A DNA stretch of 59,008 nucleotides, filler included, from Streblomastix strix (Eukaryota), in the NCBI GenBank assembly GCA_008636045.1. It is 3 parts of 3 records of this genome, joined end to end, with 100 filler letters (N's around TTAATTAATTAA, not from the genome) between each part and the next. Parts side by side here need not be neighbours in the genome. Positions count along the whole stretch, not along the records: positions 1 to 19,612 come from SNRW01000501.1; positions 19,713 to 39,323 come from SNRW01000502.1; 1 more part is not named here. One strand, given 5' to 3'. Of the stretch, positions 9,375 to 35,779 are shown piece after piece. Numbering within the stretch: position 1 is the first letter of the stretch; every line of letters begins with the position of its first letter. The position numbers were made by a program, and so were the translations under genes. The notes below the pieces were generated by a model. The model did not search any database, was not told the origin of the DNA, and saw nothing but the letters and a program-made list of their open reading frames with translations.

Positions 9375-10076
9375 TATCTATATTATGAAATAAATGATAA
9401 ATTATTATGTAAAAAATTCAAATTTACTAAGAAAATAATATTGCATGGAGGTAAATTAAGTTTAAATATTTGATTGTAATACTTTTAATTTATGCTACAA
9501 AAAATTTAATGTTTGTAAGATATGTATTTAAATTGTTTGGTAAACTATTTCCTGCTAAAAATTAAGTTTTAATTATAATTGTTACTAATCAATGAAACAA
9601 ACACTCAATTTAATGATTAAATGCTATTTATATAATTATTAAATATTGCAATATTTATACATAATTTAACTCACCAAATAAAAAATTGATAATTATTCCT
9701 CATATTGTACATATAATATAAAATATTATTAGTATGTAATTTAAATAATAATTTAAATCTTGTTTAAAGCTATAATAACTGAATTTGACCGAATTTATTT
9801 TTTTTGGCGCTATAGATTGCAATCTTGAAAATTGTAATTTTTTCCTTGCCATTTGCACTCCACAAAACATTATCATTTTCAATACATCAATATTTAAATA
9901 TATGTTTTTACTAATCCTGATTGCTGCTCTTGATATGGAATGAGAAAAACCGCACTTTTAAATATTGATGTGCTCCGCATTGGATTGCTATTAATAAACA
10001 TGCTTTAATAGATTTTTTCATTTTTAAACATCATCGTATCATTTTCTTTGTCTTTTTTTCTCGATATAGACTCTAA

Positions 10077-10660
10077 ATGAGCTTTGAAAACTTTAAGAGC
10101 GGATTTGACGTTAAGCCCGAAGAGTTCATTAAGTTGAAGAGTGGTGGCTTTAGCATGTATGATGTAATTTAGTTAACCTTTAGATTTACCTTAATCAATC
10201 ATTTAGCCCGAAAAACTACAATCGGAGATTCCAGGGCAATCTTTTGACCTTCCAGAGCTATTACTTCTCTATCCTCTTTGTATTCTCTTTGATTGCATCG
10301 TATGAATATTATTTAATAACATAAATAGTCAACTTATTATTAATTTTATATAGAATCATACAGCCCAAGAATCTTTTACCAGTCGCAGCTGTCGTTGCAT
10401 ACGTAGTTCTACGCCAACAGATTCCAAAAGACTATCGTGTATTTGGTGACGGAGGCATTGTTGTTGCTGCCATTCTGCTGTCATATTGGGCTTCACAATT
10501 CCTGATGGCATACTTCTTTGCAGCTTGGACATTTGTAGTTGCTGCACATGCATTTTTCAGAAGTAGAACAATTGCCAGACAGAGACCATGGATTGATGTA
10601 CTCAAAGAATTCGTCTTATGCAAACGCTCATTGACAGCAACAGATGACATTTTCAGTTGA
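10077..10660 (+). CDS. PRA1 (prenylated Rab acceptor) family membrane protein, 2 introns
   Basis: NRRFQGNLLTFQSYY (R..NL..FQ.NY motif), hydrophobic segments, and FVVAAHAFFR (HA.FR motif). Ends at TGA 10658-10660. Confidence 0.8.
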
Positions 10661-10868
10661 ATTTGATGACTTATCCAACTGAATTATGCAAAAAACAATA
10701 GTTTTTAAAATAATGATTTTAGATAGGTTCATTATTTTTTCAATTGAATGTTAGTATCGTACAATAAAACTCATTCTATTTAATCAAAGAAATGTTTTAT
10801 GATCTATTTTATATATTAAATAAATTAGTTATTAATTTTATTGAGCAAATTATCATATTAAAACACAT

Positions 10869-12437
10869 TCAACGCCGTATAAAATTATAATTATTATTAG
10901 GCGCACGATTTCCTGTTTGTGAATGATGAGCTTATAATTCAATGGGTAACGTTCTTGTAGTTGGTGGATATGGAGTAGGTATTATTTATTGTAACTGCTG
11001 TGTATATGGTATTGAAGGAGTAATTATTTCATTCTGAATATAGGGATTCATAAAGTCCTCAGGGAATGGAGATATGGGAGGAAGATCAAACTATTAAGAT
11101 TGAATCTATGCTTCGTGAGTTGCTTTTATTTAATTTCTTGACCTTGAAGGTGGTTACATCATTTGATCTTCATTTTGAATATTGTATTAAATTTAGTCTT
11201 ATTCTCTTTCTACATTTGGTCTTTGTGTCCTCTGGGCATATTCTTTGTTTTATACTTAATTATTATAATTTGGAATAGACCTACTTGTATAATTATTAAA
11301 TTGTTATTCATTTGGTTTGTTATTTTACCAATTTCTGATCTCGAAGCCATCATCAATATCAACATCAGACACAAATCCATCTTACTCGATTTCTTATCTG
11401 TGGTTTTCTAAATATTCAATAATCCTTCTCATCTTCTAAATCTTTCTTCTTTAATATTCTTCTTATGCTTTTTCTAATTTGAATGTTTCTTCATCTAAAT
11501 TCCATAAAGGATTCAATATTGGAAAGAAGGTTGGAACAATTCTTTTGTAAACAATGTATTTCTTTTGAAATCTAAATATCAGATCTTCCTCTTCCTGATG
11601 AAAAGCAAATTTTAAATAAAGTAAATAAATATAAAATTATGTATAAAAGCATGTTTATACATTATTTACAAGTTGAATGATTGGTAATATGGAAAGAATT
11701 GCATATAATAATAGTGTTAACGAATCTCTCCACAATGCTAAAGCATGGAAAATCAGCATCACACACAGTGCCTGTGGATGTCTCGTTCTTGTATATATTC
11801 CTTTGAAAAGATCTTATTCCAGTCTAGGAATTATAAATTCTGGAAATGATGCAAATAAAGAAGGAATAAAAAGTCCTATTGCACCTGCTACTAAAATAAA
11901 TGCAATTACTCTCGAGATATTAAAATTAAAAGGTAGAAATTCATTAATTACTTTGTCTATTGAATCGTCTGGAATGTAACGCTCAAGGAAGGAGAAGTGA
12001 AATGAATACAGAAACAAGAAAATTATTGAAATAATTCTCACAAGCCCACATTGTTAGTAAGCACGCTGTGGTGTATGTGAAATGCGAGAGAGTGCACATG
12101 GTCTACTTGACCATCCATAAAGAACATAAAATAATCCAAACCAACATATTGTAAACAGTAAATTTAGAACTGAGATTATTCTCGCATCTGACACTTTACC
12201 TTTTAAAAAAATAAATATTTTAAAAAGTAATAATTATTATTTGTAAAAATAAATATAATTTAACCAAATTAAATCAATACAAAATCAAATAAATCGGGTT
12301 TTAATTGTTTTTCAAAAAAAAGTGAAACTTAATTTTATTATTAGTTTAAATTGTTTGATATACATAGTTTATTGAGAATTAATAATATACATACCAACAA
12401 AATTCATAAGAAAACTGCCAGGCTTTCTGAAATCCAT
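10869..12437 (-). CDS. PEMT/ICMT-family membrane methyltransferase with a low-complexity C-terminal tail
   Basis: GIYTRTRHPQ...EEEDLIFRFQKKYIVYKRIVPTFFP matches G.Y...RHP / EE..L...F...Y..Y...VP.F.P. Transmembrane segments and two introns are present. Confidence 0.75.
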
Positions 12438-12521
12438 CTCAAATCAATATTATAAGACAATAATATTCAGTTCTTATAATAGAAATTTATTATTGTATTA
12501 TTTACAGATTTAATAAAAATT

Positions 12522-13931
12522 TCAATGTTCAAACAGAAATTTAAGTATTTAAAAAATTAATTCATGTTTTTTCTGATTATTCTTCGTAGCTCTTAATATT
12601 AAATGGTTGATTATTATTTAAATTTAAATCTTCTACACCACCCTGCCCAATGAGGAAGAGAGCTGAACTCGGTGGTAAACGTGGAGAATGTACTACTGAC
12701 ATTCTCCTAACAGTGCTCTCAATTCTTAAGAATCGAGGAGCGATCTTCTTTTAATCATTTTTATCCTCAGTTTCAGATGAATCATTAACTCTCACTCTGA
12801 GAGTTCTTGTATGTGGTGTACGTGTGAGGAGTAATCGCGTTGTCACACAGCTTGCCCATGCCAAACCAAGTGCAGGTCTGGATTGATCAAATTCTGAGGG
12901 AAGAGGAGCTAATTTGATGAAAAAAATATAATGTTCTTAAAAAATATGATTAGTTCATACCCATATTCATAAGATCATCTTCTTCATCTAGGAGAATTCT
13001 CTCTTAATAAATATCAATCTAATCTTATTTATCCAATTAAGTAGAAGTTTGTTATTCATCTTTACTTTTTTTATCATTCAATTTCGTTTATTCAGTTAAT
13101 TTCTTAAGTTTCTATTCGTAATCAATGGCTATAGAATGATAAAAGAATAGTCTATCATCAGCAAATGTCTCGCTCATGTTTGTTACAACTTAATTTACAA
13201 CTACCACAGCTATTTCGTGTTTATCACTTAATATCTATTAAATAAAAATAAATAATGTTAATAAATAAAATAAATATACTTTCAACTACTCCGCAATTTA
13301 AAATATTACATCAGCTCGATCCTTAATTTCATCTTTACCGAAATCAGAGCGTAAAACTAGAAGAAAATTAATCAAAAATTAAATAAATTATTCAAAAAAA
13401 AAAGAAATAAAATACCAGCAGCTATAGAATCAATAACTATAAGTTTAATTCCAACCTTTATAATTAATAATGGAAGTTCGGTATTAATAATATACAATAG
13501 TTCTTAAGCTGTGCTAGCTTTTTTCAAGTACACATTATCAGCAAGTTCCCAATCCACTGCAAAATTAAAGAAAAATAGTAAATACTTTAAAAGAATATGA
13601 TTGAAATACCTTTAAATTCTTATCTATCAGCAACACCATGGCTTATTTATATGAGTCAAGGAACAGAGATAGCACTCTCACTTCCAATATAACAGGCTGC
13701 TCCATTTAAACCTCCATTTTATTAGTGAAATTGGCATGTGCAACACAACTAAAAGCATAGCTGTGTCTTCCCAACAGCAGATTCTCCAACTATCTCAGTA
13801 ATCCCACGTGAATCAATACCTCCTCGTAGCAGTGCATCAATAGCTTCACAATCGGTCTTTAAAAACGCTCTTCCTCGTCTAATATCCACGGGGCGAATTT
13901 CTGCAATTTCTTGCTTCTAATTTTCTTCCAT
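12522..13931 (-). CDS. XRCC3: RAD51 paralogue XRCC3-like, multi-exon, with an in-frame TGA at 13656-13658
   Basis: IDALLRGGIDSRGITEIVGESAVGKTQLC (Walker A), GGLNGAACYI, IVIDSIA (Walker B), VVNQV, RPALGLAWASCVTTRLLL, RRMSVVHSPRLP. Confidence 0.85.
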
Positions 13932-14140
13932 TTGTGTGATATATAATCTAAAAATTAAATAAATAAGTAAATCATAATTAATTCAAACAATAAAAAATCA
14001 AATTATTGAATTATTACGATCAATAACTGGTATAGAACAAAAATATTTATATTTTAGTGATGGTTGATTATTAAATCTATTACATTATAATTTATCTGTA
14101 TTTGTGTTATTTTCTTCTTATATATTCAATAGATTCAATA

Positions 14141-17100
14141 ATGGATGTACCGTACAGCTTTCCTGGCGCATATTATCCAGGATAACTTGCGCTCATGAAT
14201 GCTATTCATGCCGCTGCGCAGGAAGGCAAACTGGCCTTTCTTGAAAGTCCAACAGGTACAGGAAAGACTTTGAGTTGTCTATGCGCTCTGAGTGAATGGG
14301 TGATCGGTGCAAACTGTGAAAATTAATCTGATGTTCCACAGAAAAGCATTTTATCTCAGACTCCTATTGATGAAATGGTGCTGATGCTATCATAAAGAAA
14401 AATCCTGTAAGATGTATAACGATAAAAAGACCTGAAATCTAGAAGAATCCTAGTGAGAAAAGAAAAAAACATGTTAGAAAGAGAAGAAATCCTTCAAGAA
14501 GAAGAAGAACCCGAACCGAACGATGCTGAGAATCAAGTGATTTATGCAACTCGCACACATGGTTAAATAGACCAAGTTGTTAGAGAAATGAGAAAGATTC
14601 ACAATGCGCGTCCAATCTCACTCAGCATTCTTGCAAGTCGGAGTCAAATGTGTATCAACGAGAGTGTTGTTAATAATGTTTGAAGTATAATAATTTTATT
14701 TTGATCTAATTTATTGCATTAAATTTATTATTTATATAGAGATTATCACAAATTGATGAAGAATGTGCTTATTTGAATAACAGAGGAAATAGAAAAAGTT
14801 TATTTTTTTGCATACAGAAAAACATTTTATAATTTTTTATAATTGTTCTTCTTCACTTTTTTTATTTATACAGATAAATGCCAATTTTACAATATGCGCA
14901 AGGTCAATAGCCTAAGAAACACAATAACAGTATTTATATTATTCTTTTTTATGATTCTATTTAATAATTTTTTACTTTTATAAGAGAGTTTAAATGAACA
15001 TTGAAGATTTATGTATTGAAGGAAAGAGATAAGGTACATTGAAATTCTAATCTTAATAACATTATAAACATATTTTACATTTATTATTGTTATTATTATT
15101 CAGGTGCATGTCCATATTATGCTTCGATGCAGGCATCTGCAAAAACAGACTTCATAATATGTCCATACAATTATATTCTGGACAACGGCATGAAATTATT
15201 CATTATATTCTTTATTTTGATATCTTATTATAATAATAACATTATATATACATCTTAGAAAGTCGTAAGAATACATCCTCCCTTTGGCCATTGGGTTCTT
15301 CATCAGTAATTGTTTTTGACGAAGCTCATAACATTCCTTCATCTGTAGATTAATGTAATTCATCTTAAATAACACTAAGAGAAGTTTGATATAAATTAAG
15401 TGAAGGAAAAACAAATGAATATTTAATAATCATTTTTATTTCATTTGTATTCATTCTTATTATATTCATATCTTTTTCAGTTAATTGCATCACAGGTTGC
15501 ATTTGTAATGGCCAGAGAAAGATTTATAAGGTGAAAGAGTTAAAGGGATATGAATGTTATCAGCAAATTAATGAAATAAAATTAATAATAAAATGCGAAT
15601 ATTCACAAAATTGATATAAATGAATAAAAAAGTGATGATAACAATTTAATATAAAATAAAACGATTGCTAATATAGAAGAATCAACTGTTTTTGATATTT
15701 GTGCTCAATTAACTCAAAAACTTATTGATTTTATCCTCAATCCAACAAATTCAATTTCATTTGGCCTCTAAGCACGTTAATCTTCATCATCATTTTCATC
15801 TCCTAAAATACCATCAAAATAATATGTTGATAATTCATTGGGAGGAATTGAACCAATTAGCGTATTTCTCAGAACAGCTCTTATAGAAGATATGAATCTA
15901 TTTAAGCTATTTGAGTCGTCGTTTGATAATTAATAGTAATAAACATTAAAAGATAATAAAAACCAGATAAAGTCGGTAGATAATTCTGAGAATATTAAGA
16001 ATGTATCTCAATCTGAGTTAGAGTAGAATATATTGAGAAGTGCAACAATAGCTCTTGATTGAGTTAGAAGAATATCCAGAGAAGTAGGAATGAAAAGAGA
16101 ATAAGAAATTGAAGATGATTAATATGATTAAGATGAGATTGATTTTAAATAAGAAAAGAATAGATTAATAAATAATAAAAATAATAATAGCAAATAAGAG
16201 AAAGATTTGGATGAAAATGAAGATATTAATTTAGATAAATTGTTTGATAATTAAGATCACTTAGATGATGATGAAGATGAAATACAATTTGATTAAAAGA
16301 AGAAAAGGAAGAGATAATAAGAAAATGATGAATAATTGAATGAATTATTGAATGATGATTAAGAAGAAGATGATTAAACTGGAAATAAGAGATTGAGATT
16401 GGCCTGTATAGATGAAAATGAGGATGAAATAAACGATGAATAATAAATTGATCAAAAAAATAATATTTCTTCAAAAGAAGAGTCTGATGATGGTAATGAT
16501 ATTATTAAAATTGGTTAAAAATCTCTTGAATCAAAAAAATTGCATACTTCTCCATTAAATACTGTAGTTGAATAAATAATATAATCTCCTAAAGAAGATC
16601 AGAATTCGCATCCTCTTAATCTTCCTTCATAAATGTCTTAATTTGCACAATTGCATCCACTTCCACACAACTCACCTCGTTCATTTATGAGATTTATTTC
16701 ATCTCTTAGATCTGGGAATGAAGAAGGATATGTTGTTGCTAAGTGGATAAAAAGGATAATGAAGGGGAAAGAAATGTTGGATGGAAAGAATGAGAAATAG
16801 GAAGGATAGGATAATAAGAAGAAATAATTGGAGAATTTTAGATCTAATGAAATTATTAATCTTGATTTAGACGATGATAATAATAACTAAAATTAAAAAT
16901 GTGAAAAAGAAGGATAATTTATTCAATAATCTTCCTATATAAATGCAATCGATGAAACTGCGAGAAGAACTGAAGAATCTCTTCTCGATCTTGATAACAC
17001 TTTACTCTAATTTGCAGTTGTTGATACAGCATCTAGATTTAAAGAACTTCTTAATGCAAGAGCTATCATTTTCATTGGAGGAACGATTTCACCTGTATGT

Positions 17101-18744
17101 TTATTTTTATTGGTAATTTAACTTTATTTTTTTATTATCTTTTAATAATATTTAAATATTAAAGGTGATGTCTCTTGCACTCCAGTTACTTCCACCTGAA
17201 TACATTCCATCAACTTCTAATAAATCTCCAGTCGTTTCTTATAAATAATAATCTCTCACACAAATTAATTAGTCAGTTGAGATAACAAATAATAGCAAAA
17301 TATTATAACCATCTATTTCTTAAACATAAATTCTCTCAAAATCAATGAGATTCACATCTCAAATATTTGATCATGTTCTTAAGAAAGACCATTTCAAAGC
17401 ATTAATCATCTCAACTTACTCACCTTTTATTCCTTCTTCTTCGTTCTATTAATCATCTTCATTAGGAAATAAATAACATTAACTTGATCAAAGACCTATT
17501 AAGTAATTTGTATGTTTATATTCTTAATTTATTTTATAAATTCATTCACTATTACTCCACATCAGATTTTCACACTTGAGAATCGGTAGAATCAAGAGCA
17601 AGCATAATATCTTTGGTAATTAATCTACAATGCAGCATCACAAATACCAGATGGAATTATTGTCTTCTTTTCTTCTTATGCTCTTATGGACAGTATGAAC
17701 CAAAATTTTAATTAATTATTCTTATTTCTTCTTTAGATATACTCGATAATTGGCGTAGAAAGGAATAAGACTAAATAAATAAAACTATTAAACCATCTAA
17801 ATTAGATTCATTGAACAGAATTAAGAGAGTTTTTATTGAAGAAAGAGGGAAAGGAGCGAATGTCAATAATCTGATACAAGATTATAAATAAGAAATAGAC
17901 AGTTCATGGAAATACACAGATAAAGATGGAATACAAATTGTATCCTTATTTTGTTAAGATATTTTAATGCCTCTTATATCTCATATTTTTATCTTAGAAT
18001 AGTGGACATAATGGAGCAATGCTTCTTTGTGTTACTGGAGGAAAATTGAGTGAAGGAATAAACTTTCCTGATGGTTATGCGAGGTTAATAAATTGTGAAT
18101 ATGTAGATAATTCCATTGAATAATTAATTAATATATTATTTATTATATGCAGAGCTGTATTTATAGTTGGACTGCCATTTGCAAATAGATTTGATCCAAT
18201 ACTCAAAGCAAGACTAAATTTTTGTGCAGTAAAACATGGTAAACAAATGGCAGGTATTGAATTATTTGTGAATCATAGTAATTAAATTTAATATAATTAC
18301 AATTCTAATTTTATGCTTTTTTTATGCTAATCTTTTAAGATTAATTATATGAAGATATGTGCATTCGCACAGTAAATCAAGCTGTTGGTATGTGTTTTAA
18401 TTTTTCACATTAAAAAATGATTATCGGTATATTTTTTCTTCACTTTCAAGGTCGTTGTATAAGACACAGCTAAGATTATGGAGCTGCTATCCTTGTTGAT
18501 GCAAGATATTCATAAGTTTGCAACATAATTAACCAATTTTATTATTTTTTATTATTTTTAATTATTGAAGGATAATATGAAGAAAAAATTACCTAATTGG
18601 GTAAAGGAATCACTTGTAATGTTGGTTGAATCACAGAAAATTGGATAAGAAATGAGGATTTTCTTCAAGCAATTTGAGAAAGAATAGCTTGAAGCTATGA
18701 TCAAGCGACATGTGCTATCAGACGAAAAATAAAATTCAACTTGA
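14141..18744 (+). CDS. DDX11: XPD-family Fe-S DNA helicase DDX11/Chl1, multi-exon, with in-frame TGAs at 15532-15534 and 16060-16062
   Basis: LESPTGTGKTLS, VIYATRTHGQ, ILASRSQMCIN, ACPYY, VFDEAHN, GGTISP, PDGIIVFFSSY, GGKLSEGINF, GLPFAN, VNQAVGRCIRHSQDYG, KLPNW. All motifs splice in frame; ends at TGA 18742-18744. Confidence 0.88.
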
Positions 18745-19383
18745 AGACGGAAAATACTGCGTCATATTATGTAACCAATATAAAATATTGTCAGTATGTA
18801 AAAAACAATCATTTGTTGATGGAAAGAGTAACCTTGACTTTTTGTTTTTTCGGCGCCATAGTTTGTTTGCTCCGAAGTTTTTTTAGCTGTTTACGCTCTC
18901 TCAAACATTCTCCAGCTTGACATATCAATATTTGGGTGGATATATTAATTAATTTTAATTGAAACGCACATTATTGAATACAGAAAATCGAGCAAACATT
19001 CAATCGCGTTTATCCTGCGCATTATCAATACATTCAAAGTACAAATATTCTACACTGCTATATGAATAAGATTTACATTGATTTACTAAGACTATTTGCT
19101 TATTATTCTTTGTTGTCAGTTAATATTGCCAACTTTTTACAATTTTGAAACAAGAATGCACTCTGCATGGAAATGACATTATATTAACTATCCTAATACA
19201 TTTTTTCATTTCCAAATAACGTCGTTTCATTCATATTATTATTGACAATTATAATATGACTCGAGATGAATTATCCATCATATATTATTGAGTCCTCTTT
19301 TTCTAATGAAACTTTCTTTATATTTATTTTATTTTTTGTTTATTTGTTATCAAATTAGGTGGTATAGCTACATTTTCATTGTG

Positions 19384-19612
19384 ATGGAAACTATAAACAC
19401 AAAGCGACTAAAATTAAAGTCGGAACAAGATAAAAAGCTTAATGAAAATGTTAAGAAGTGGATTTAGACGAACTTGAGCAAAGATGTTGATGTACCAGAA
19501 GGCCTGCGTGATGGAGTTGCAATTATTGAAGCCCTTAACCATTTGAAGCCCGGATCTATTGAAAAATATGAAAAAACGCCAAAGAACATTTTCTCCAAAG
19601 CAACTAATATCA
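19384..19612 (+). CDS. Calponin-homology (calponin/transgelin-like) domain protein, 5' part, truncated by the contig end
   Basis: VKKWIQ...EGLRDGVAIIEALNHLKPGSIEK...FSKATNI matches the CH-domain 'L.DGV.L..L.N.L.PG.I' motif. Confidence 0.75.
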
Positions 19613-19712
19613 NNNNNNNNNNNNNNNNNNNNNNNNNNNNNNNNNNNNNNNNNNNNTTAATTAATTAANNNNNNNNNNNNNNNNNNNNNNNNNNNNNNNN
19701 NNNNNNNNNNNN
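19613..19712. other. Artificial contig-joining linker
   Basis: 44 N + TTAATTAATTAA (19657-19668) + 44 N, a six-frame TAA stop linker. Confidence 0.97.
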
Positions 19713-20226
19713 ATCGAACATGATCAGAAGTTTGAATGCATCTTCAACTTTGTATTGTTCAAGAAGAATATGTTAATGATTCTGATTAAAGAGATTTTGA
19801 CTCGAATGAAAACTCTGATTCAAATGAAGAAGCTTAATATGATGATGATTCTGATTGAATTGAATTGTAACTACAATAAACAACTTGAGTTTCACTAAAA
19901 AATAATCTTGCAATATTATTGATTTAAGTTACATGATATTTTTTCTTTCAATTAATTAACCAATAATTAAACATAAAACTTTATAATAAACCACAAATAA
20001 ACTTTTGAAATCTTATCAAAATAAATCACGCATAGCGCCTGAGCTATAGAATATAGATCATTTTAAATTATTAAATTTCATATAACATAATTATAACAAA
20101 ACATTTAGCATACATTTACATATTAATTAATTTATTTATGGTTGTAAATTTAGTTTTTCTTTTTATTTTATATTTTTCTTATTTTATCCTGATTTTAATA
20201 GTAGTTAACTAAAAAAAGTTAATTTT

Positions 20227-22829
20227 ATGTCAATAAAATATTATATCCGCTCATTAGTCTCTTGTGCAGAAGACTTTGAACCATTTCTTGGGGTGATGTG
20301 TGGTGTGAAATTATTTTTATTTTTGCAATATCGATTTTACTCTTCATTCTTAGCCCCATTTTAGCGAAAAATAGAACCAGCAGGAATTGCTTATGAGAAA
20401 ACATATGGCAGACTTGTAGATGTTGATGATAATTAAGCCGCTGATGAAGCAAACAACTTCAAATCAAAAGCACAGAAAAGGAGAGAAAGAGCTGCCGAAG
20501 AATAAAAGAAAAAAACTTAGTAAAATAATGATGCTGACAGTAAAGGAGCTTCAGGCAACTCAAATGCAAGTCGTGTTGCAAAACTTGCCAAAGAATGCAG
20601 AAATCTCTATGAAGTCCTTGACCTAGAAGAAATAGGAGAGATGGCAGCACCAGATGACATAAAGAAATCATATCGAAAATTAGCACTAAAATATCACCCA
20701 GATAAAAACACGAAAGACTCAGGGTTCACTGATGCACAACTTGCAGAGCGCTTCCGAGAAGTTCAAGAAGCTTATGAAGTTCTGATGGATCCATTTCAGA
20801 AGAGATAATACGATTCAATGCTTCCCTTTGATGATAGAATCCCAAATGACAGAATTGTTATCGAGAAAGTAATACCTGTATGGCCTTAGATTGATATAGA
20901 TGTTGTATTATAGAATGAAGGAAAAGGTAAAGGGAAATAAAAGAAGGCGAAGAAAATCGATCTTTTGTTGGAACAGCACAATTATTCCAAGTTTGAACAA
21001 CAATGGACAGAATTTGAGCAAATCTTTGCACCTGTCTTCAAACGCAATGCAAAATGGTCCCTTAACAAACCTACCCTCCTTCTTGGTGGTCTTGGATCCA
21101 ACAAAGACGATATTTCCTCCTTCTACAAGTAATGGAGCAATTTCAGGTCCTGGCGTGAATTCCCATCAGAAGATGAGCTCAATGTATCTGATGCAGAATC
21201 CAGAGAAGAAAGAAGGTGGATGGAAAGAGAGAACGCGAAGATGAAACAGAATACTCGAAATGAGGAGCTCAAAAGGATCAGTAAACTGACTGAATTGGCT
21301 CAGAGATATGATCCAAGGCTCAGATGGTTGAGAGAAGAAGAGGATATTAACAGAGTCAGGGAATAGAATGATTATAATGAGAGGAAGAGATTGGAAGATG
21401 AGAAGATTCATGCTGCAAGAGTGGCTGCTGCTGAAGAAAAGAGGATTAATGAAGAGAAGGAACGCATTGAAAGAGAATAGAACAAGGTTGCATCTAAGAA
21501 ATCACGAGGAAGGGTTAAATCATCTTTTGTTTAATTGATCAAAGAATTGAATTCTCGAGATTCACTTCCAAAAGATGAAGATGGGAATAGTGAAAAGATT
21601 AGGAGAATTATTTATTGTTACTAAACATGGGATTTGGAGGATGAACATATATCATCTCGTATATCAGAATATCTAAATTCAATTACTTTAGAAGAGCTTT
21701 AATAACATGAGAAAGGTCTTGATATTAATTTAAAAGCAGTAAAATAAATTCCAATTTCTGCTTTATAAACACCAGATAGTCAGAATATTATTAAATCTGC
21801 CTAAGAATCTGCTGTAAACTTTACTTCAAACACAGAAAAGCATCATTTCAATATCGGTGAGCCAATTCCTGATACTTCTGATGAACAAAAGAATATTTCA
21901 GATGCAAAGAAAGAATCTAATCAATATGATCAAGAATAGAAACAAAACTAAATTTAATCAACAGAATGGTCAGTAGAAGAGATAACTTCTCTTATTGCAG
22001 CAATAAAGAGATTCCCACCTGGACTCCGCAACAGATGGACCAAGATTTCTGAACAGACAAAAAGAACAGAAGAAGAATGCATCTCTAAATCTCACAACTT
22101 GCATCAATCTGGAGGAAAACTCTCGACTGAAGCTTCAATACAACAATTTATTATTGAGAGACAAAGGCACATAAACAGAATAGAAGCGAGTGCAGGAATA
22201 GATAATACAAATGTAGATTAAGGATCATCACAAAATGTGCCAAATGTGAATATAAAAGGAGCAACTGGATTTATTCCATTTCAACACATACCTTTGTAAG
22301 CATATAATTTATAATCTAAGGATTCATAAAAACAATAATAATAATAACCATAAACTAAATAAAAAGAATAGCAAACTAAGTAGTAATAATAATAATAAAT
22401 AAAAGAGATTTCATCAACAAAGAATACTGACACAAAAATAACTTCAAATCCATAATAATCTCAAACTCCACAAATTTCACCTTCACTTCAATCAAAGGAA
22501 ACAGAACACAAATAATCAAATAATGAAACATCTGCATCTTCAGAATAGTAATAATTGAATTCTTCACTTAGTTGGTCTGTTGAGGAATAGAAACGATTGG
22601 AAGAGGGACTGCGAACATATCCAAATTCTTTAGGCAAAGAAAGGTCTGATTTTATCTTTATCTATTAATTTAATTTTTATGTTTATTTATACCGATTAGA
22701 TGGACTAAAATTGCTGAAATGGTCAAATCTAAGACAAAGAAAGAGTGCATTGAGAGATTCAAAGAGTTGGCAAACATTGTCAAAGCTGGTTAAACACCAG
22801 ATAATGGATCGGTAAAAACTCAAAATTGA
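20227..22829 (+). CDS. DNAJC2: Zuotin/MPP11-type ribosome-associated J-protein with two SANT/Myb domains
   Basis: RKIEPAG, J-domain NLYEVL...[31 protein letters not shown]...[28 protein letters not shown]...FPPGTRNRW and [17 protein letters not shown]. Two introns. Confidence 0.9.
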
Positions 22830-23280
22830 AAATTGAGGATTATTTTTATTTACTTTTTTACATTTGTATCATTTCACAAAAATCTAACGATAAAAATAAA
22901 GAGGGGGAAAAAATTAATAGATTTACATTTCAAGACTATCCTTTAAACTATTTATTATTATCAATAGTGGAAATGATGGGCGCATTCGTGAGTAAACTTG
23001 TGACTGTGAGATCAAAATTGATACTAAATAAAGATTTCCGAAGTAAAAAATTAAATAACCTTTGTTCCCCTCATAACTAAACAAAGATAATAAATATATC
23101 ACGATATTATCATACGTTAAAAGCCAATTAATATGCAGCAGGAGAATGCCAGCTGCAATATAAATTATGGGGTTAAAAATATGTGAGAGAATATATGAAT
23201 CAATATTTCATAATCAATGCCATAGTATTTTTTCATATATTATATCCTTTTTCAATCTCTTTCTCTTTCTCACTTTATTT

Positions 23281-25181
23281 TCATATTTCATTCAAAGAAT
23301 TTTTCAATGCCAATTAGAATTATTCTTCTTCAGTTAGACCTACTTATTGATATTAGCTTATATCTGGAGTAATCACTCTCGATTATCTATTATCATTCTA
23401 ATTCTAATTCTAATTATAATTTGCACCTCTTCCTCGAATAGATAAATCATCTTATGGAATTTCACCTCCATTCATATGATAATTTCCATTTGAATCGGCA
23501 TTGGATTAATTCTATTAATTTCCTTATTTAATTTCAGGTCTATTGGAATTAGCATTGTGATTTTCATTCATCATTTATGTTCTTTATTCTTATTGATGCA
23601 AAGTAAGTGGAAACGTATTAGAATTTATTTAAGTTTCTTATCTTCTTAATTCTTCAATTTATTATTAACTCATTTTTTAATCAGCTATTGACATTTATAA
23701 TGCTTTTTATAATTCATCTTATTCATCATCATTTTCATTAATATCTGCATTTTCTCTAAAGTCGGAAGTAGGTCCAACTCTTTCATCTCGATTATTGGAA
23801 GGTATTAAATTTCTTAATCTTCTTTCCAAATTTTCATCTTCAGTTTCATTGCCACTTTTAGTATCTTCTGGTATTGTTTCAAGTTGTGAGGATTATCCTT
23901 TAATAAGTTTATTTAAATCTGAGTTAAATTTTGGTTTTCCCATCTGATTAAGCTGATCTTTCAATTATTAATATACATCTTTTGGGATTTCGTTTTATTG
24001 ATTATTAATTTAATTCTGACATTATGATTATGGTAAAGAGCTTATATCAACTAATTAAATCATATTTATTTTATCTTTTCCACTATAATTATTATCACAG
24101 ACATTTAATGGACGAATATCATTTTCATCAGCATTTGAAATACGAGTTGACTGATGGTAATTTTCTAATCCTTTTATTGATCGATTCCTTCCATCTATCA
24201 GTCTAGAATAACCATTATTATTACTTCTATTAGCATCATATAAAGCAATCTCCATTGATTCATTGGAATTTGATGATCTGGGTCCAGAACCATCTTCAAT
24301 ACCACTATCATTAGAATATTATCTATTTTATATTTCTCCTGCAACTTATGATGGAATTCTAATAGGATACTATAATGCCTTATTTCCTGGTTCTGTTAAT
24401 ATATCATTAATTGATGAATCAGTTTATTGCAAAGGAGATGGGCGCATTGGTGTATGAGAAGATGAAGAAGATGATTATGAAGGAAATGATGGATATATTT
24501 TATTTCTCCTTCCTTCAATCTTTTTCCCATAGTCACTGAAACTTTAGTTTAATTAAAGTGATTTTGTGAATTTATCTGTGTATTATAATGTAAATAAAGA
24601 ATTGTTCTCACTGTATTCATTATCCAATCCAATCTCTCTCAAATCTCCCAATTAAAACATATCAAAGTCTTCTTTCAATTGAAATGGGAGATCTTTCTCT
24701 TTAACTATATATCTTGGATTGACTGGTGGATAAATCTAATTTGGTTAATTCTAAGATTATGAATGTGTATGTGATTGAGTATTAAGTTAAGGAGGGTGAA
24801 TGTGTATATTTGAATTATATGATGATGCATTTGGATTGGGATGTGAGGCTGAAGGTGTGAATTATGAAGGTTTGTGGAAAATTTGGATATTTTTATTTTA
24901 TTAAGATGAGGATTATTAAGATTAATTTATATTGCATAATGGATTTAATGTCCATTTTGCCTCTTAATTTTCGGTTTAAGTTTTATTTTCTTTATTTTTA
25001 ATATTTTTATTTGTATCTGTTTGATTAGATGAAGAAGAATGTTCATCATCAGGACTCAATTCAAGTTCAGAATCTGAAACATCATTTGCTTCTGTATTTA
25101 TTGCATTTACATTGTTTGAATTTGATGTGATTATTGTTTGTGGTGGTGAATAAGATGTTGATGATGATGTTGAAGAAGAAG

Positions 25182-25212
<31 letters not shown>

Positions 25213-28200
25213 TTGTTTTGGTGATGATGGAGGAAGAAGTGGAATATTCATCGCTTCATGAACTTTCTTCATTTATTATTAATATTCATCATTTACTATA
25301 TATTCTTCTTTTCCTTTATTATTACCATTTATATCTTTATTTTACTGTCTCTAATCTAAATCACTTTCAATTTCTTTTTGTTATTCTTTTATTTCGGACT
25401 ATAAATGCTCTTTATTTTCATTTGATGTTTCTGAAGATGAAGAAGATTAATCTGTAGATGAATCGGATTAAGTAGAAGATATTTGCTATTGAGGATCTCT
25501 TCCATTAATTTCATCTTTCTCTTTGATTTATCCATCAGTGTCTTTCTCTACAGATTCTTAATCAGCAATGAGATCTTTTTCATTTAATTTCTCTGGTTTT
25601 TCTTTTTCTTTTTCTTTCTCAATTTCTTTCTAATTTTCATTTTCTTTCTTTTTATCTTAATACTCTCTTTATTCTTTTTCATATTTCTTCTGCAAAAAGA
25701 ATTTTCTTGTAATTTCTCCTTCTTTCCGAGCAAAACAGATTTCTCGCCAATTCCAAGGAAGACCCCGACGACGGAAGAATAACATGTATGCATCTCTGAT
25801 GAAGAATGAGAAAGAAATAAAATAAAAATTATTAATAATTAATGCATTTAAAGATATATTAAATATAACTATTATCAATTTTGCAAACTTATTATTAACT
25901 ACCCCTTTTGGTTAAAGATTTAACATCGCTTCTGCTTAAGCATTCGAATTGATAGAATATGATTTATCATATGAACATTCACTAACTGACCCATCATTGC
26001 ACAGTTACCATTTCTAATTAGATATATTATATGTATATGCAGTATAATGACCTGATTCAGCTGTAGATCCTGAATGACAGCAGATTGCAAATAGGTCATA
26101 AATGGCAGGAAAATGTTCGTGTTCAAAATCTGGGAGTTCAAATTCAGGAGGGACACAAAGTGGTGGATATTTCGTACGTTGTATTTATATTTATTAATTT
26201 GAATAGGAAGAAGAAGATGGTTATGATTATGATGATGATGATTAACCCTATGATATATGTTGAGGGTAAGGAGGAAGATGAATATCTTCATTATATCTTC
26301 TATATTCTTCTTAATCCAAAAAGCTTTTTCTACTTTTTCCTTGATTCCAATCTCTATTTTAAATTTCATTTCCTCCTTTCAATCCTCCTTTATTTTCAAT
26401 GGGCTTTGGCTTTCCATTTAAAATTTAGATTAAAATTTAATTTTCATTTTCTTTAATATTTCCTTACGTTCCTTCCCCTTCTCGTTAATTAATATTTTCC
26501 TTATTATTTCCAATTTCATATGCATCACCTGGCTCTGAAACAGTAGTTGCGAGTTGAATTTATTGTATTTATTCTTTATTTTCTTCTACATAATTTAAAA
26601 AATCTTTTTTCATATATTGTGGAGTTGGCTCTTTCTAAACATCATTCACTATTATTTCTCCATCAGGTTTTGATCCAATGTTATTTATGTAATTATTTGG
26701 TTAATGACTTTATTAATGTATTTCATATTATGAAAAAAGAAAATATTTATGGCATATGTCACATTCTATTGCAGGATCATCATTCGAACTTTAATCTGGA
26801 TCAACTTCCTTAACATTATTTTATTATTCTAAATTTGAAATAATACTTTAATTGATTGTATTAATATCATTATTGTTTATATTATTATTTCTATTCTAAT
26901 TATAACGTGTAATAGCCCCTCCATTTGCTGTAGATCCAACGCTTATTTATGAACCTACACTAATTGTAGTAGTCCCATCTATATCATGAATTATGCCACC
27001 TTATTTTTGTTAATCAAATTTTAATTATTCTTCATATTCTTTTGGGTTTTCTTTTCTTAATTTCTCGGATAATGTTAATTATTCATCATTATTATTGTTA
27101 TTGTTTCCACTGCCATTACCATATTAAAATGCTGAAGATGGAGCAACACTAATTTCCTGATTTTAATATATTTGTGGATTTGGATTAGGATTATTTTATG
27201 CTCTTTCGTATTCATTTCCATAATACATTTCATCAAAGTTAGATTCAGATTCTTTATCTTCATCTTCATTCTAATTCTCATCTTAATTCTCTCTTTCTTA
27301 TTCTTATTCTTTCTCTTTGTCTATTTCTTTTTATTTTTCAATTACATTATTCTTATTTTCAATTTCTTTTTCTTTATCTTTTTATTATTTATTTAATTTT
27401 CGTGCTTCTTTTTCTGATTATTTTTTTGCAATATATTATTAATGAAGAAGTTCAATTGAATATTTCCTCCATATATTACGAATGAATTCATCAGTTTCTT
27501 CCTAAAAATAAAAATAAATAAATAATGGTTAAATAATAATAGAAAAATAAATCATACTTAAGGGCATAATTCATAATCAGTTAAAATAAGTTCAGTCAAT
27601 GGGTATTCAATAACAATTTCATTTTTTCTTGGTACTTAAACAGCAAGCATTTAATGATGAAGTTAAGATTTAGCTGCTGACTGTGTAGATGAAGATGGTT
27701 GTTCTAATCCAGGTGGAGGTGGACTTATTCTATTTTAATCTACTTATTATGGTGATTATATTGATGATTAATATGATGATGAAGATGATGAAGATTAAGA
27801 TGAGGAAGAAGAAGAAGAAGGTGAAGAAGGAGAAGGAGAAGCATTTGATGGAGAAGATAGTAAATAAGAGGATTAAGGTGATTATTATGAATAAGAAGCA
27901 GGTGGATTAATATTAAGCTGATTATTTGCTCTTTGTGGTGTTCTTATATTAGGAGCTGGAGGAGTTAGAAGTGAAGGTTGAACATTGGTTAAAGGTGAAA
28001 ATATTGATGGATTTGATGTTGAAGATTATGATGATGAATTTTGCAATATTTGTTATTACTGCAGCTAATGTGATATAACTGAAGGATATGGAGTTGAAGA
28101 TTCTTCATTTGCATTTGGATTTATTTGACTATCTGGAATTGGAGAAATCTATTCTTAGTTTCTATCGCTTTGTTATTATTCATAAATTTACTGAATTTCT

Positions 28201-31200
28201 GTTCCATTATGTTGTTAATTATTATTACTATGATTTTCATCTTCATTTGAATTTCTATCTGTGTTTTATTATGAATTTATAGGAGAAGAAGATGCATTTG
28301 ATGATTATTAAGAAATATTGTTTGGCATTGTAAGTGGAGCATATCCAGATTATTGGGTGAATGTTCCAACTGGTTATGAATTTGTTTATTAATTTTATTA
28401 TTGATTTAATAGCTATTGTTATTGTTAATATTCTTCATTTAATGTATGATTATCAGATGAAAGAATCTAAGATGATTAAGAAGGTGAAAGAGCTGTTTAT
28501 TAGTACTGATGTGTTTGTTAATCTTGATATTGTGATTAATTGAATTAATATTATTGAAGTTAGACAAATGGTTAAAGAGAAGGTGAATTTTAATTAACAA
28601 CTGAATTAGAAGTTGATTAATGCTATTATTAGGAAAATGGTTAATTAATGTTTATTTATATCAATTGATGTGGTTATGGTATTGATGAAATATTAATGGG
28701 AGAAGGAGAATTCAAATTTAGATTAATAGATGAAATTACATTTGCATCCATATTTATAGATTATGATTATGATTAAGATTAAGATTAAGTATTTGAAGGT
28801 GATAATGAAGGAGAAGTGTTCTATGATGGAGATGGAGATGTTGTATTGAATTATTATTATGATGAAGAAGAAGAAGAAGAAGAATATACTTATTATGAAG
28901 TTGTTTATATTGGTGATGTAGATTCGTGCATTGGTGATGATGATGGATTAGCATGTGTTGTATTTTAATCTTCATGAATATTGATTTATACTTCAACAGA
29001 TGGTGAATTAGAAGGTGAAGTAGATGGTGATGATGAAGATGAAGATAATGTATCTTATCCAATAATTGGTGGTGCGTTGACATTTACATCTATATCTGTA
29101 TTAGCATTAGCATTAACATTCATATTTGAAGTAGCATTTAATCCATTTTAAATATTAGTTCCTGATTATTATTATCCTTAAATTAAATTTCCTGCATTAT
29201 CTTAATTTGTCTATTCTACATTAGGAGTTGTAGTGCGAATTTCAGAATTAACTTGACTAGATCCTGAAACTGGTTCTTTTACATTATTAATATTATTCTC
29301 ATTCGTTTTTTTTTCTTAATTTTATACTTGTTCATCATCTACTTAATTAGTTATTTCTGGTGGAATCGTACGAAATCTATTTAATTATATCACAAATACG
29401 GGTGGAAATCTCCATATATCCAATTTCTTCTTTGCTCGTCGAAGTTAATTGCAAGTTGGACATTTCCATTGATTATCATACGACAACTTTTCTTCAGCTA
29501 AATAAAGATCTAAACAATCGTATAAAGAAGGGTTTCCTGAATTAGTTGAATGTGTTATTGGATATAATGATGAGGGTTATGAAGTAGAAGATGATGATGA
29601 TGAGGAAGATGATGATGAGGAAGATGAGGAAGAAGATGTTTAATGGTTTTTTTCTATTCTTTTAATTCTCTTCTTTTATAATTCTTCTTATTCTTTCTTC
29701 TTCTTTTATTCTTTTAATATATACTTTTTTACTGATTTATGGATTTTGATTTTAGTTATTTTCTCTTAATCAATAACATCTGGATGAAGCCAAATTATTG
29801 AAATTCGTTAAAATTCTTTTTTGAATTAATTAATAATATCAGAGTCTATAAGTGATGTCTTTGCCTCAGTAGCTGCTGATTCAATAATTTTTGATCGTTC
29901 AAATTAATTCAGATTGGAAAATTTCGATTATTACGAAGAATATAATGGTGAGGATTAAGAAGTTGAAGAAGAAGTTGAAGAAGTGGTTGAAGAAGAAGTT
30001 GAAGAAGAAGATGAAGAAGATAATGATGAAACATTTTCGTTCTGATCTTCCATTTCAATACGATTTCCTGGTGCTGTAAAACCTCTATTTTGTAGTAATA
30101 TTTGTTCATTGCTGATTTCTTTTTCTATTGTTTATTCTTTTTCTTTTATTAATTCTTATTCATAACCTCTTTTCTATAAAGCTCTCGATATTGAATCTGG
30201 GTCTGTTCCATCTAATGGTAGTTCAATCATTTCTGTATTGTAAGGTTTCATGTCTCCAATAATTATTCTGAAATGTGTATTTCATATTAGTTATTAATAA
30301 AAAAATAATTATATTTGTTAATGTATAAAAATATGTAATGCTTTAATATTCTTAACATATATATCTCAAATACAGTACATATTAAAATATAAAATATACC
30401 TGTATGGCAATAGATTCCTTGGAGGAAGAGGAAGAGATTGTAGCCATTTCTCAGTTTTCTTATTTGATACTTCTTCATCTTCATCTGAGTTATCATTTCC
30501 ATCTTATGTATTTTCATTAAAATTTCTTGTATATCTTTTTCTTTCAAATTTTTAATTATTGTATCTCAATTTATTTTTCTCCTTCTCTATTTATCTAATT
30601 TTCTTTATTTGGTTAGTTTTCATCTTATTCAATTAATAAAGTGATTATTTATTAAAAAAAACGGAATTATCATTATCAAATTCATTTTAACTATCAATTT
30701 CACTTTCACTGTTAGCATTATCAATGTTGGTATTATCTTTCTCTTTCTCTTTTTCTCTTCCATAGAAATTACTGATTCCCTCCAAATATTATTTTCTATA
30801 TAATTCATTATCTTTTTTTCTTTTTCTTAAATCGAATTCATAATCATCAAAACTAGAATCAATCATATTGTCAGTCAAATCAGATCCTGACTCACATTAA
30901 TCATCATCATCTTAATCTTGATCGTGGGAATTCTTATAATTTTTACTTTTAAAGTTTGATTTATTTTAATTTTCATTTGTTTATTATTCATCTTAATTAT
31001 TATTAAAATTATTCTCAATCAAAGATTTCTCTTTTAATTTCTATTTCTTTGATTTTAAAAACTTAATTCTCCCTCTCAATTATTTACGAATTTAAATCTC
31101 CCCTTACAATGACTCTTTCTTGTTATTATAATATGCTTATTCATTTCCCTAATAAAATGCATCTAATTATTTTTTATGAGGTTCCTTATACATTTCTGAA

Positions 31201-34200
31201 ATCTTTGTACTGTCGGCTTTCCATTATTTATTTGGATGACGATCAATTACTTCAATTTATTCACTCTAATCTTCTTCTTAGCCAAGATAGTTATCTTTTT
31301 CTTTTTGTAAACTTGTATATTTTAAATCTTATTTATATTTATTTATATTTATTTTTTTGTTTGTTTTAATTTATGGTTCTTTGTAATAATAATCTGAATT
31401 GCCAATAAAGCGACATTCATGACCATAGAATGGTTCAGGGTCATCTGTTATATCATATTCATCATCTTCAATTTCGGTTAGGATATTTTCTTATTCTTAT
31501 TCAACATTATTATTATCATCATTACTCATTATCAATTCATTATTCTATATTATTTATTGTCTCCTTTTATTTCTTTGTTATTTCCTTCTTTCGTTTTCTT
31601 TTTCTTTATCTTTCAACTTCGATTTCCATTTTTTCCAATTTGTTTCATCTATTTTTTCTTTATCTATCCAATATTTATATCCTTTTCCATTAATAATATG
31701 TTATTTAACATAATCCCAGATTCTTTAATGAATTGTAAAACACGAATCCCTTTATACATCAATAGAAATAGGAAATGGAACTCCAATAATTTTTGTAGTA
31801 ACTAAAATTTCATTATTTACTAAGAACTCTGATTGTAACACATAAGATGCTGTTTATTTCAATTATCCAGTGAGTATTGCATTTTGAATATTTAAAACAA
31901 TTGGCCATGATTTGTTCAATTCACTTTCTCTTTTCAATCTTAATTATTCTCTTTTCTTTTTTCGATCTTCTCTATCTACAGCATTTTTCGCTCTATAATT
32001 TTCATTGTTTTCTAAAATAGATATTTTTCTTTCAATTGATTTCTCGGGATCGCTTTTCAATTTATCTTAATCTTCATTTTATTGTTTTACATCATTTCTA
32101 TCTTCTAGTAAATAATAATTATTATCATTATTTTCATGGTTTTTATTAAATCTGGAACTATTATTCTCAATCATTTTATTGAAATTGGCTTCTCTTCTTT
32201 CTTTTTCATTAGTATTACTTTAATCATTAATATTAATTTCTTTTTCAAAATTTAAATCTTTCTAATCAAAAATTTAACTTACATTCTCTTTTTCTTTTTC
32301 TTTTTCTTCCTCTTTTTCTTTAGTTCTAAATGTCCTAATTTTATCAAGTTCCAATTAAAGCATTTTTAATTCTTCAGCATCTTTAATACTTTCTTTTTCA
32401 TCATTAGTCTTATTCATATTATCTCTTTCAATTTCATCAAACTCCTTTGTTAACTAATTATGAATATTATTCCATTCTTTTATAATTTTTTCATTTTGTT
32501 CAAAACCACTAAATAATATAATGAATATTTTGATAAATAAAATAAAATAAAATAGAAAATTTAATAAAATGAAAATTATATAAATAAAAAATTATTAAAA
32601 AAGTTACTGAAAAAAAATAAATATTTTCAAACTTAAATTTTCCTTCTGAAAGATCATGATTTACTTCAGCAATTGTTACGAAATATACTCCATTTTAATT
32701 TTGAAGACTTATGAAAATAAATGAATAAAATTTTAATTTTTAAAATAAAAACTAATCTAAACTAAAAAATATATCTTTATTCTTAAATTGTCAACTATAC
32801 CTCATCAAAGGTTTTGCTGGTTCATAAAAACCATAAAAATATCCATGAAAAATATCAAGAGCAACAAGATTACCTATTTTAAACAAAAAATATATAAAAT
32901 AAATAAATAAATTGTGATAAAAATATTATTTATTATTTTTTCGTTATTAATTTATTCAAATTATAATTCTAATGATATCTCACATCTATTTGCATACCAA
33001 CTCCAACCCCAACAATCTCACTTACTCTCTTCATTACTTACCAGACTGTATCATCACTTGCCATTTCAACAATCAGACAAAGTCTTCTATGTTTATTTTT
33101 CAATATTTCTCTCTGTTTATTCTTTATTGTTTTTTATTTAAATTATCGTTTTTATTTTTGTTTTAATTTATTTTATTGATTTTGTTTAGATTATGTTGAT
33201 TATATTTCTGAGCTAATTAAATCTGTTTCTATCTTTCTATCATTGTCATCTTTTTCAATTTAATTTTATTATGTATTACTACTTGGAGATTGAATTTTCA
33301 AAGAAGTTGAAAACCCAAGAAATGAACTTGGTTTCTTTGGTTTTGCACTTTGGACTTTAATTTTAATATTCTTTTCTTCCATTTTGATTTCATCCTTTTC
33401 TTAAGAAATTTTTTATTCTTTATATTCTTCATCTTATTCAGAATCATCTTCATCTTTTAATTATAGTGGTAGCCATGTAACATGAACTGCAACTCGTTAT
33501 TCCATAGGAATTGGAAGGCATAGTATACCTGTTGTATTGAATTAAACTGATCGATGTTAACATTAAACGCAATCAATTGTGGATTTTGATTCACCATAGA
33601 ACAATTCGGATATAAAAGAATCACTTCGATATTTCATATATTGTCGAGCTTAACTGGCAAGTTCTACTTCTGTTAATGAAAAATCTCCTCCACTTGTTAT
33701 ATTTGTAGCTTTATTCTTTGCTCTATTAAGATCTTCATGCTATAATTAATAAACGAAAATAATAATATAATAAGTATAAGAAAAGTTAAAAAAGATGTGA
33801 AAATTCACACAAGTCCATCAAGAAAAACAGTTACTAGCTCATGAGCATCATGCTGTTAATATCCTGCAAATTAACGATGGAATCAACCAACAACATTTTT
33901 CATTCTTTCTGGTCGAACAGCTCCTGATCCTTCTCCCCATAATCCCCAGATAAACTCACTGTATTCATAAGCTCCTTTCCCTTTCCATCCAAGAAGACTA
34001 TTAATGTTAAGATCTTATATGTATCGCATTGAAAGAAACTCACTCGAAAGTGGAACAACACTAGCAAGACATTAGAGTCCAGAGTTGAAGTAGCATGTAT
34101 TTCCTAAATTCACTAACCCATGAACTGCTAATTACTTTTATATTAAGTTTCTATTATGATCATCTCTCGATGTCTCTTAAACTTCATCATTTATTTGTTA

Positions 34201-35216
34201 ATCTAATTTTATTATTTATTCATTAAGAAAATTAAATATTGTTATAAAATATATTCAATATATTTATAGAAAAATTATACATTCTGCAGTTGAATTTCTT
34301 TAAGATTCCTTAACGCTTTCTCTCTTCAATTAGCAAGTTATAGCCGGATGTTAATCCAATCCACAATCAAAGCTATTCAATTCATAAATATATTAATAAA
34401 ATAGCGAATAAAATATAAAAAATTAAAACATAAAAAAATTCTTAATGAAAAATATACCAAAATAATTTTCCACATAAACATTTCACATCTTTTTGAAAGA
34501 ATCCTTATTTGCGCTATATTATTTATGAACATCCTACATTTGGACAGAAGACAAATTGATCTTTTTATGATTTGATATAATGGTCTTACAAAAATCGTTT
34601 GTATTCATCAGAAGCTTTTGTTCTGCATATTATATACAAGAATTAAAATTATTATTTAGCAAATATTATAACAAACCCAATTAATTGAATTTCAACTTCG
34701 CCAATTTATGTTGCACTAAGAAAATCAAGGACTTCCATAATCTTAGAGGGGTATATCTTGGCTATACAATTAACACCTGGGCATGCAATTTGGAATGAAG
34801 AATAGCCATCCAATAATCGAGTTTGAATCAGTTTTCCAAAACAATCTGAACAGAATTGGTGACCACATGGAAGATAAGTTATATTACCAGGTTTGAGTGG
34901 CTGAATGCAGATTTTGCAGTCTTATGTTTCAATTGATGATTCTATTGGCGAGTCGCTTATAATACCAGCAGCCAAAAATAGCGAATCTTTATCGTCAACA
35001 AATTAATTTGTAAGCCTTTCTTGATCCCACCTTTAAATAATAATTTTAATTTGATGAAAATCTAATAAAAAGTACATACTCTTAAGAAATCAGTAGAAGA
35101 ATAGCTTCATCTGTGGAAATATTAGTAAGTTCGCTAATTCCTTTTATTATTTCATCCATTTATTTCTATACGTCGTCTCGTTTGATAAATGTGAATGGAG
35201 TAGGGATGTCGACCAT
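23281..35216 (-). CDS. Very large USP (peptidase C19, USP4/15-like) deubiquitinase with an Ariadne-like RING1-IBR N-terminus and a C-terminal UIM; in-frame TGA at 33883-33885
   Basis: N-terminus WDQERL, CKIC...LPCGHQFCSDC...IACP (RING), FCPNVGC...VKCLCG..FCFDCGLDQHPAITC (IBR). Cys box GLVNLGNTCYFNSGLQCL, QHDAHE..FLDGLHEDLNR, SLYDCLDLY..EE...WKCPTC...KKLDIWRFPPVFVIQLNRF. His box YDLFAICCHSGS..SGHYTAY...W..CND, AYMLFFRRR. UIM LTEEEQFQLALKNSL. Confidence 0.85.
25172..25210. repeat. (GAA)13 microsatellite encoding poly-Ser inside the USP gene
   Basis: Perfect GAA run, read as TCT (Ser) codons on the minus strand. Confidence 0.9.
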
Positions 35217-35779
35217 TCTATTATATGAACTTTTATACTTCTATTATGTAATTAAACTGAAATTTAAGACGAATATAAATAGTTTAGAGGGAAGCAAAGC
35301 GAAAAAAAAATAAAGAAAATTCTAATAGTAATTGTAAAATGATCGAAAATAACTAAACAATATAATGCATGAATAATACTTTATAAAAAATATTTATGTT
35401 TAGAAAATGTGCAATTAAAAGGAAATACAACTTGTACGGCGCGAAACTACATTATTTTCGAGAGATAATTTTTTTCTTTGGAACTTTCAATAGAAAAGAA
35501 TTACATCGAATCTGCAAATATATTTAATAAATATATTCATATAAAATTATGTTTTAATAGTAAACATACTGTGATAATGTTAGGTTACTAAGAAACGAAC
35601 TGTGCCAATATTTTAATAGAAAAAAACACTAAACATGTATAAAGGATCAATATAATAAAAATAATTTTATTGATAATATTTTTTAAAATTTAATACTTTC
35701 ATAAATAGTAAAAAAAACGTGGTTTAAAATTTATTGAAAATGTTTTACAAAAAAATTTAAGTTTTCACCGATGCATTGA

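Follow-up and report, generated by a model that had tools for sequence, protein, structure and literature searches.

In-frame TGA codons at arginine positions in nuclear genes of Streblomastix strix and their probable reading as arginine

A genetic code in which TAA, TAG and TGA mean glutamine, glutamine and arginine (Q/Q/R) was proposed in 2023 for seven spirotrich ciliates with the use of Codetta and manual checks (PMC10089648). In-frame TGA at arginine positions was counted 987 times in U. setigera, as judged from alignments (PMC10089648), and among the literature that we found, the Q/Q/R code so far rests on this one computational ciliate study. In Streblomastix strix, an oxymonad flagellate of the termite gut, TAA and TAG have already been published as glutamine codons, corresponding to NCBI table 6 (PMC1501061, PMC13002328 and PMC11687900; here and below, statements about cited papers refer to the passages available to us). 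Here, we examine a window of 59,008 nucleotides consisting of three N-spaced S. strix contigs (positions 1-19612, 19713-39323 and 39424-59008), in which genes for an XRCC3-like RAD51 paralogue, a DDX11/ChlR1-like helicase and a RING/IBR (RBR)-USP fusion carry four in-frame TGAs. We consider it probable, though well short of certain, that UGA in S. strix is, within genes, a rare codon for arginine and, close to gene ends, a stop.

The window agrees with the published S. strix code in its use of TAA and TAG as glutamine, in having spliceosomal introns and in its GC content (26.9%, compared to 26.6% given in PMC10703272), and the four sequencing runs listed as carrying window DNA are termite-gut metagenomes, none of them of RNA, which has no bearing on expression. 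It departs from the published code in that UGA has no sense meaning in the passages that describe the latter, whereas the window genes have internal TGAs at arginine positions. The available passages of the 2026 study that derived the Streblomastix code from tubulins, and that also reported single-cell transcriptomes, do not mention UGA, TGA or arginine (PMC13002328), and premature or in-frame stop codons go unmentioned in the available parts of the supplements of PMC10703272. The tRNA-Arg of S. strix appears in the supplement of PMC8318970 by accession only, without anticodons, and ARAGORN found no tRNA genes in the window.

Internal TGAs and the residues they align to

An earlier note on this DNA had reported four in-frame TGAs in three genes free of frameshifts, and both observations stood. 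The TGAs lie at 13656-13658 (-), 15532-15534 (+), 16060-16062 (+) and 33883-33885 (-), and over the 5,267 codons of the three gene models there are no frameshifts and no internal TGAs beyond these four. The claim that three of the four fall on arginine and none on tryptophan or cysteine was borne out by homologue alignment (assignable TGAs: Arg 3/3, Trp 0, Cys 0), with the evidence strongest for XRCC3, weaker for the DDX11 site at 15532 and at the level of the subfamily only for USP. A UGA = Trp code of the Condylostoma type was rejected, as none of the three assignable TGAs is at a tryptophan. Selenocysteine recoding was also rejected, the TGA sites aligning to arginine and not to cysteine (Cys in 1 of 52 homologues at the DDX11 site); SECIS elements were not searched for.

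The XRCC3-like gene (12562..13931, -; 5 exons, 386 aa) has its TGA at codon 92 (13656..13658), with 885 nt of coding sequence (CDS) downstream. The codon occupies the conserved arginine of the R-L helix of the RAD51 family, and of five alignments shown, the four that extend over it (to three XRCC3 entries and a RAD51 entry) all have R, which makes a strong case from sequence for the arginine assignment. The protein search also gave one distant XRCC3-like fusion, and a comparison of the XRCC3 exon with viral contigs gave no relatives.

The DDX11/ChlR1-like Fe-S helicase gene (14141..18744, +; 15 exons, 1223 aa) has two internal TGAs. Codon 321 (15532..15534) stands in a column that is arginine in 35 of 52 DDX11-like homologues, themselves picked by two other alignment columns, and in 36 of 87 when all matches with the DEAH segment are counted; by pairwise BLAST, which is noisier, R was found in only 7 of 23. 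These counts give the arginine assignment moderate support. Codon 497 (16060..16062) lies inside a lineage-specific insertion that is aligned in none of the 52 homologues, and its residue is not assignable. The idea that this TGA replaces the conserved lysine of the K-L-x-G-F block of DDX11 failed, the best match to the block being at residue 371 and not 497.

In the RBR-USP gene (23281..35216, -; 12 exons, 3658 aa), the TGA at codon 356 (33883..33885) falls on the arginine of the V-G-R-F motif of USP15 in an ungapped alignment, the three alignments being to constructs of one protein. The CDS stays open for 9,909 nt downstream, and both the Cys box and the His box are intact. The arginine appears to be specific to the subfamily, because the close matches have R (P0003), T (P0004) and T (P0005) at this position and, of 80 distant USPs, 5 share the R. 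A metagenome scan for USP relatives gave 80 distant loci that were at most 39% identical, none of them from an oxymonad. As a separate observation, the gene joins RING/IBR ligase-type domains and a USP15-like deubiquitinase in one 3,658-aa product, with the catalytic boxes of the USP part lying apart and long low-complexity insertions between them.

The TGAs could be amplification or assembly artefacts or could lie inside unrecognised introns, as the public annotation has it, but we find this extremely improbable. A public S. strix protein matches the USP exon at 100%, and the corresponding public model, P0002, is only 541 aa long and splices the USP TGA out; such a signal could therefore have been missed. 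Frame-preserving GT..AG pairs also flank each TGA, for example a 24-nt pair in USP and a 108-nt pair in XRCC3. However, ungapped alignments run through the XRCC3 and USP TGAs, and the annotated USP intron would delete the conserved Q-Q-x-D motif together with the TGA. The GT..AG candidates have a lower AT content than every real intron, or else are too small: among the five with the most T at each site, none exceeds 75% AT, whereas the lowest real intron has 78% and real lengths are 44-132 nt.

The three TGAs on contig 1 were also compared in contigs, from which minor variants are dropped, of the runs X1 and X3; of the other two runs, X2 covered none of the TGA sites and X4 gave no contigs. 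T stands at the sites in the independent contigs of X3, a sample from another study, and in those of X1, which has a share of 0.95 and is possibly the window's own source, hence not independent. The X1 contigs cover all three sites without an alternative letter. The X3 contigs cover 13594-13756, 15530-15876 and 15951-16101 with 3, 5 and 3 differences, respectively (11/661 nt; 1.7%), none of which is at a TGA; the five differences of the middle contig are all placed elsewhere than at 15532, a TGA that sits 2 nt from the contig end, while the other two TGAs are at least 39 bases from contig ends. The presence of the three TGAs in X1 and X3 argues that they are not artefacts, and their being common to X3 argues that they are older than the 1.7% population split. 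Another X3 contig is ~80% identical to exon 4 of XRCC3 (12975-13127) and may represent a diverged relative or a paralogue, or a match due to low complexity.

Decay, readthrough and editing as alternatives

The pattern could also have arisen by nonsense mutation of the usual kind (CGA>TGA or AGA>TGA) and fixation through drift, in genes that would be young pseudogenes or null alleles, although we regard this as unlikely. Of the ways to reach TGA in a single step, 15-68% start from an arginine codon, the share varying with the mutation spectrum, and CpG is depleted on the gene contigs (observed/expected about 0.62, range 0.61-0.63, compared to 0.94 on contig 3), both of which fit decay. The chance that three of three neutral TGAs would fall on arginine is 0.003 under a flat spectrum, 0.04 under the observed one, 0.10 with the CpG rate raised threefold and 0.31 with it raised tenfold; within the 130 conserved DDX11 columns it is 0.005-0.008. 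The other products of CpG decay (TGT, TGC, TGG and CAN) are found in none of the 13 Arg-conserved DDX11 columns.

Decay would further need three of the nine host genes in ~35 kb to be dead, every one through a TGA and none through a frameshift, and the two DDX11 TGAs are older than the X3 split, yet their gene has no frameshift. By computation, four neutral TGAs need about 120-220 substitutions, over which frameshifts would be expected in dead genes, yet the repeat-rich USP CDS is open for 9.9 kb past its TGA and the only coding indel shown on a close-matching X3 contig, of 3 nt at 16360, keeps the frame. Ordinary pseudogenes should have frameshifts that are missing here (0 in 5,267 codons, compared to about 6 in viral relics). 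These relics are decayed copies of a viral-type primase in the same window, with about 6 frame changes and 7 stops; the stops stand opposite C, S, Y, I, Q, D, W and R, in comparisons between paralogues that are 26-55% identical and in which some matches are possibly off-frame.

Several points weigh against an arginine reading. CpG is depleted (0.61-0.63), and a tenfold CpG rate would give three arginines of three by chance with P=0.31. There are only three assignable sites, and the window was picked for showing the pattern. The contrast in frameshifts, 0 of 4 lesions in the genes against 6 of 13 in the viral relics, is not significant alone. The neighbourhood of the DDX11 site is divergent, arginine is scarce at the USP site among the 80 distant USPs, and the X3 contigs are only ~3x deep. 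Among the X3 differences listed, 5 placed differences are synonymous and 10 non-synonymous, leaving out 21 rows of the ~80% identical contig; downstream of a TGA the numbers are 3 and 10, a ratio that shows no purifying selection and is compatible with the neutrality that decay predicts, the counts being small and mostly from variable stretches.

A leaky stop is another way to account for the internal UGAs without an arginine meaning. Trp, Cys and Arg tRNAs would then each read some of the UGAs, the arginine positions would only mirror where mutation creates TGA, and the genes would get by on a little full-length protein; this seems to us decidedly unlikely. It would fit the TGA/CGA ratio, which is about 30-fold lower than TAA/CAA. 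In yeast, UGA readthrough inserts 86% W, 7% C and 7% R (PMC4967479). Readthrough dominated by tryptophan would favour Trp sites, and Trp was found at 0 of 3 even though 57 TGG codons were available. A C at position +4 after UGA favours readthrough, but only the XRCC3 TGA has one; the others are followed by A, G and T.

Site-specific U-to-C editing of the mRNA would convert UGA to CGA and make the genomic TGAs harmless, but we hold this to be very unlikely. We know of no nuclear U-to-C editing system of this kind. Organelles do offer a precedent: in the plastid of a dinoflagellate, editing converts the UGA in rpoB to CGA (PMC12574857). In Streblomastix, however, TAA and TAG are found in cDNA and are therefore not edited (PMC1501061 and PMC13002328), and T>C is not enriched among the mismatches at conserved DDX11 columns, accounting for 4 of 76, fewer than A>G (9) or A>C (9). 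U-to-C editing as a single principle behind all three codons, as the earlier note had suggested, can hence be set aside, and so can its notion of a new code (see below); UGA = Arg inside genes remains the best reading, with artefact and intron explanations having failed.

Codon usage, decoding and gene ends

That TAA and TAG are sense codons, as previously claimed, was clear from the gene models, where they make up 394 of 519 glutamine codons and stand opposite Q in the USP15 and XRCC3 alignments. Internal TGA is far rarer, with 4 in 7,679 codons over all models (0.052%), and is absent from five further models: a ZRF1-like DnaJ, a BAR-SH3 protein, a methyltransferase, a PEMT-like protein and an unknown gene at 8.7-9.4 kb. 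We take the labels ZRF1, BAR-SH3 and DDX11 from motifs known to us, and that of DDX11 also from an unnamed homologue set. Contig 1 encodes an N6-adenine methyltransferase. The codon totals are 57 for TGG and 44 for CGA, and 4 TGA stand against 321 Arg codons. A fifth internal TGA at 10630 (-), suggested by the gene finder, was dropped, as Pfam sets a PRA1 gene on the + strand there, and its model was left out of the 7,679-codon count.

The 29 introns in the three gene models are 44-132 nt long, 28 of them GT-AG and one GC-AG. The latter is the DDX11 intron at 15188-15258 (+); GTTTG begins several other donors. A gene finder trained on the three models recovered the XRCC3 and DDX11 exons, a result that is not independent of the models.

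If UGA is read as arginine in these genes, internal UGA would be translated by an arginyl-tRNA that outcompetes a UGA-only eRF1 where the poly(A) tail is distant, and UGA close to the end of the message would still terminate. The four internal TGAs have no flanking motif in common and lie 885-9,909 nt upstream of the CDS end, so a rule based on position would fit better than a local signal. The decoder would be one of two tRNAs: tRNA-Arg(UCG), whose G36 would pair with the U in first position, or a newly derived tRNA-Arg(UCA). Natural UGA readthrough is known to insert Arg, Cys and Trp, and first-position wobble is tolerated (bioRxiv 10.1101/2023.06.19.543857). Decoding of UGA as arginine may be inefficient and imperfect, or young, because the TGA:CGA ratio is 4:44 while TAA:CAA is 447:152; if that is the case, TGA would survive chiefly in genes of low expression, in a genome of 27% GC that is prone to drift.

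More speculatively, and we consider this doubtful, a metamonad may have independently reached a stop-free Gln/Gln/Arg code in which G36 tRNAs (Gln UUG/CUG and Arg UCG) read first-position U as C without any dedicated suppressor tRNA, and in which termination depends solely on closeness to the poly(A) tail. If true, one G36 rule would also account for UGA = Arg in ciliates with TAR = Gln.

As to the claim that genes end in TGA, the 8 modelled ends are TGA, in part by construction of the models. Beyond five of these ends the AT content rises immediately, whereas the sequence stays coding-like beyond the other three. The coding-like stretches extend 30-90 nt past the first terminal TGA in DDX11 (18742-18840, +), USP (23230-23283, -) and BAR-SH3 (5310-5348, -), and translation of these three genes may really stop at a TGA further on. 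Behind the apparent ends of the PRA1-like gene (~9930-10660, +) and the unknown 8.7-9.4 kb gene (8700-8710, -) there are in-frame TGAs in tandem, which might act like backup stops.

Apart from the host genes, the window has decayed viral-type elements that also use TAA and TAG as glutamine, at 35900-37600 and 39424-59008 and possibly at 1-4300. They consist of primase-helicase copies (DUF5906) and repeat proteins, with frameshifts and stops. Comparison of a primase with viral contigs gave no relatives.

Comparison with known codes

S. strix resembles Condylostoma magnum and Parduczia, which have stop-free and context-dependent codes, in having all three stop codons inside genes and in the rarity of sense UGA (PMC4967479). 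Sense UGA makes up 0.042-0.12% of codons in Condylostoma, Blepharisma and Parduczia (PMC4967479), and the 0.052% of internal TGA found here falls within this range. The meaning of the codon differs, since UGA is Trp in Condylostoma and Parduczia, which mass spectrometry and ribosome profiling have shown for C. magnum, whereas arginine in S. strix is read from alignments. The stop-free code of Blastocrithidia nonstop (PMC12153298) also has all three stops inside genes and UGA = Trp, in contrast to the arginine positions of UGA in S. strix.

Putative in-frame UGA at conserved arginines, as in S. strix, has been described for the plastids of Trentepohliales (PMC8692980) and the mitochondrion of the diatom Craticula vanensis (PMC13672107). 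These organelles use organelle ribosomes and release factors, unlike the nuclear genes of S. strix, and UGA is a much larger share of the arginine codons in Craticula, about a quarter (119 vs 341) compared to about 1% in S. strix (4 vs 321).

In the literature searched, outside of which most subscription papers fall, UGA = Arg is reported neither for Streblomastix nor for any non-ciliate nuclear genome. The ciliate code list of PMC11687900 gives only Cys and Trp for UGA in its available part, Streblomastix is in the reference list only of both PMC8629427 and, as far as available, PMC10089648, where it is absent from the supplement text, and the phrase "UGA to arginine" in 10.1101/014928 was rejected as a precedent, as it concerns codon substitution in insect SPS genes. 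If the arginine reading is true, the accepted S. strix code is incomplete, and public S. strix gene models are wrongly spliced or cut short at TGAs, P0002 apparently being an example. S. strix would also be a test case for termination when the last stop codon is also a sense codon, and for a tRNA that reads UGA as Arg.

The closest match is to the spirotrich ciliates with the Q/Q/R code, which like S. strix have TAA/TAG = Gln and in-frame TGA at arginine positions at low frequency (PMC10089648). The proposal that this is a new nuclear code thus fell, Q/Q/R having been put forward for these ciliates before. Instead, the S. strix code is likely an ambiguous Gln/Gln/Arg code. Since S. strix is a metamonad and not a spirotrich ciliate, the origin would be independent, and S. 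strix likely belongs to the Q/Q/R code as a separately arisen member from outside the ciliates. It would then be the first nuclear case outside ciliates in the literature searched, and it would support the view that reassignment of UAA and UAG to glutamine predisposes UGA to become arginine.

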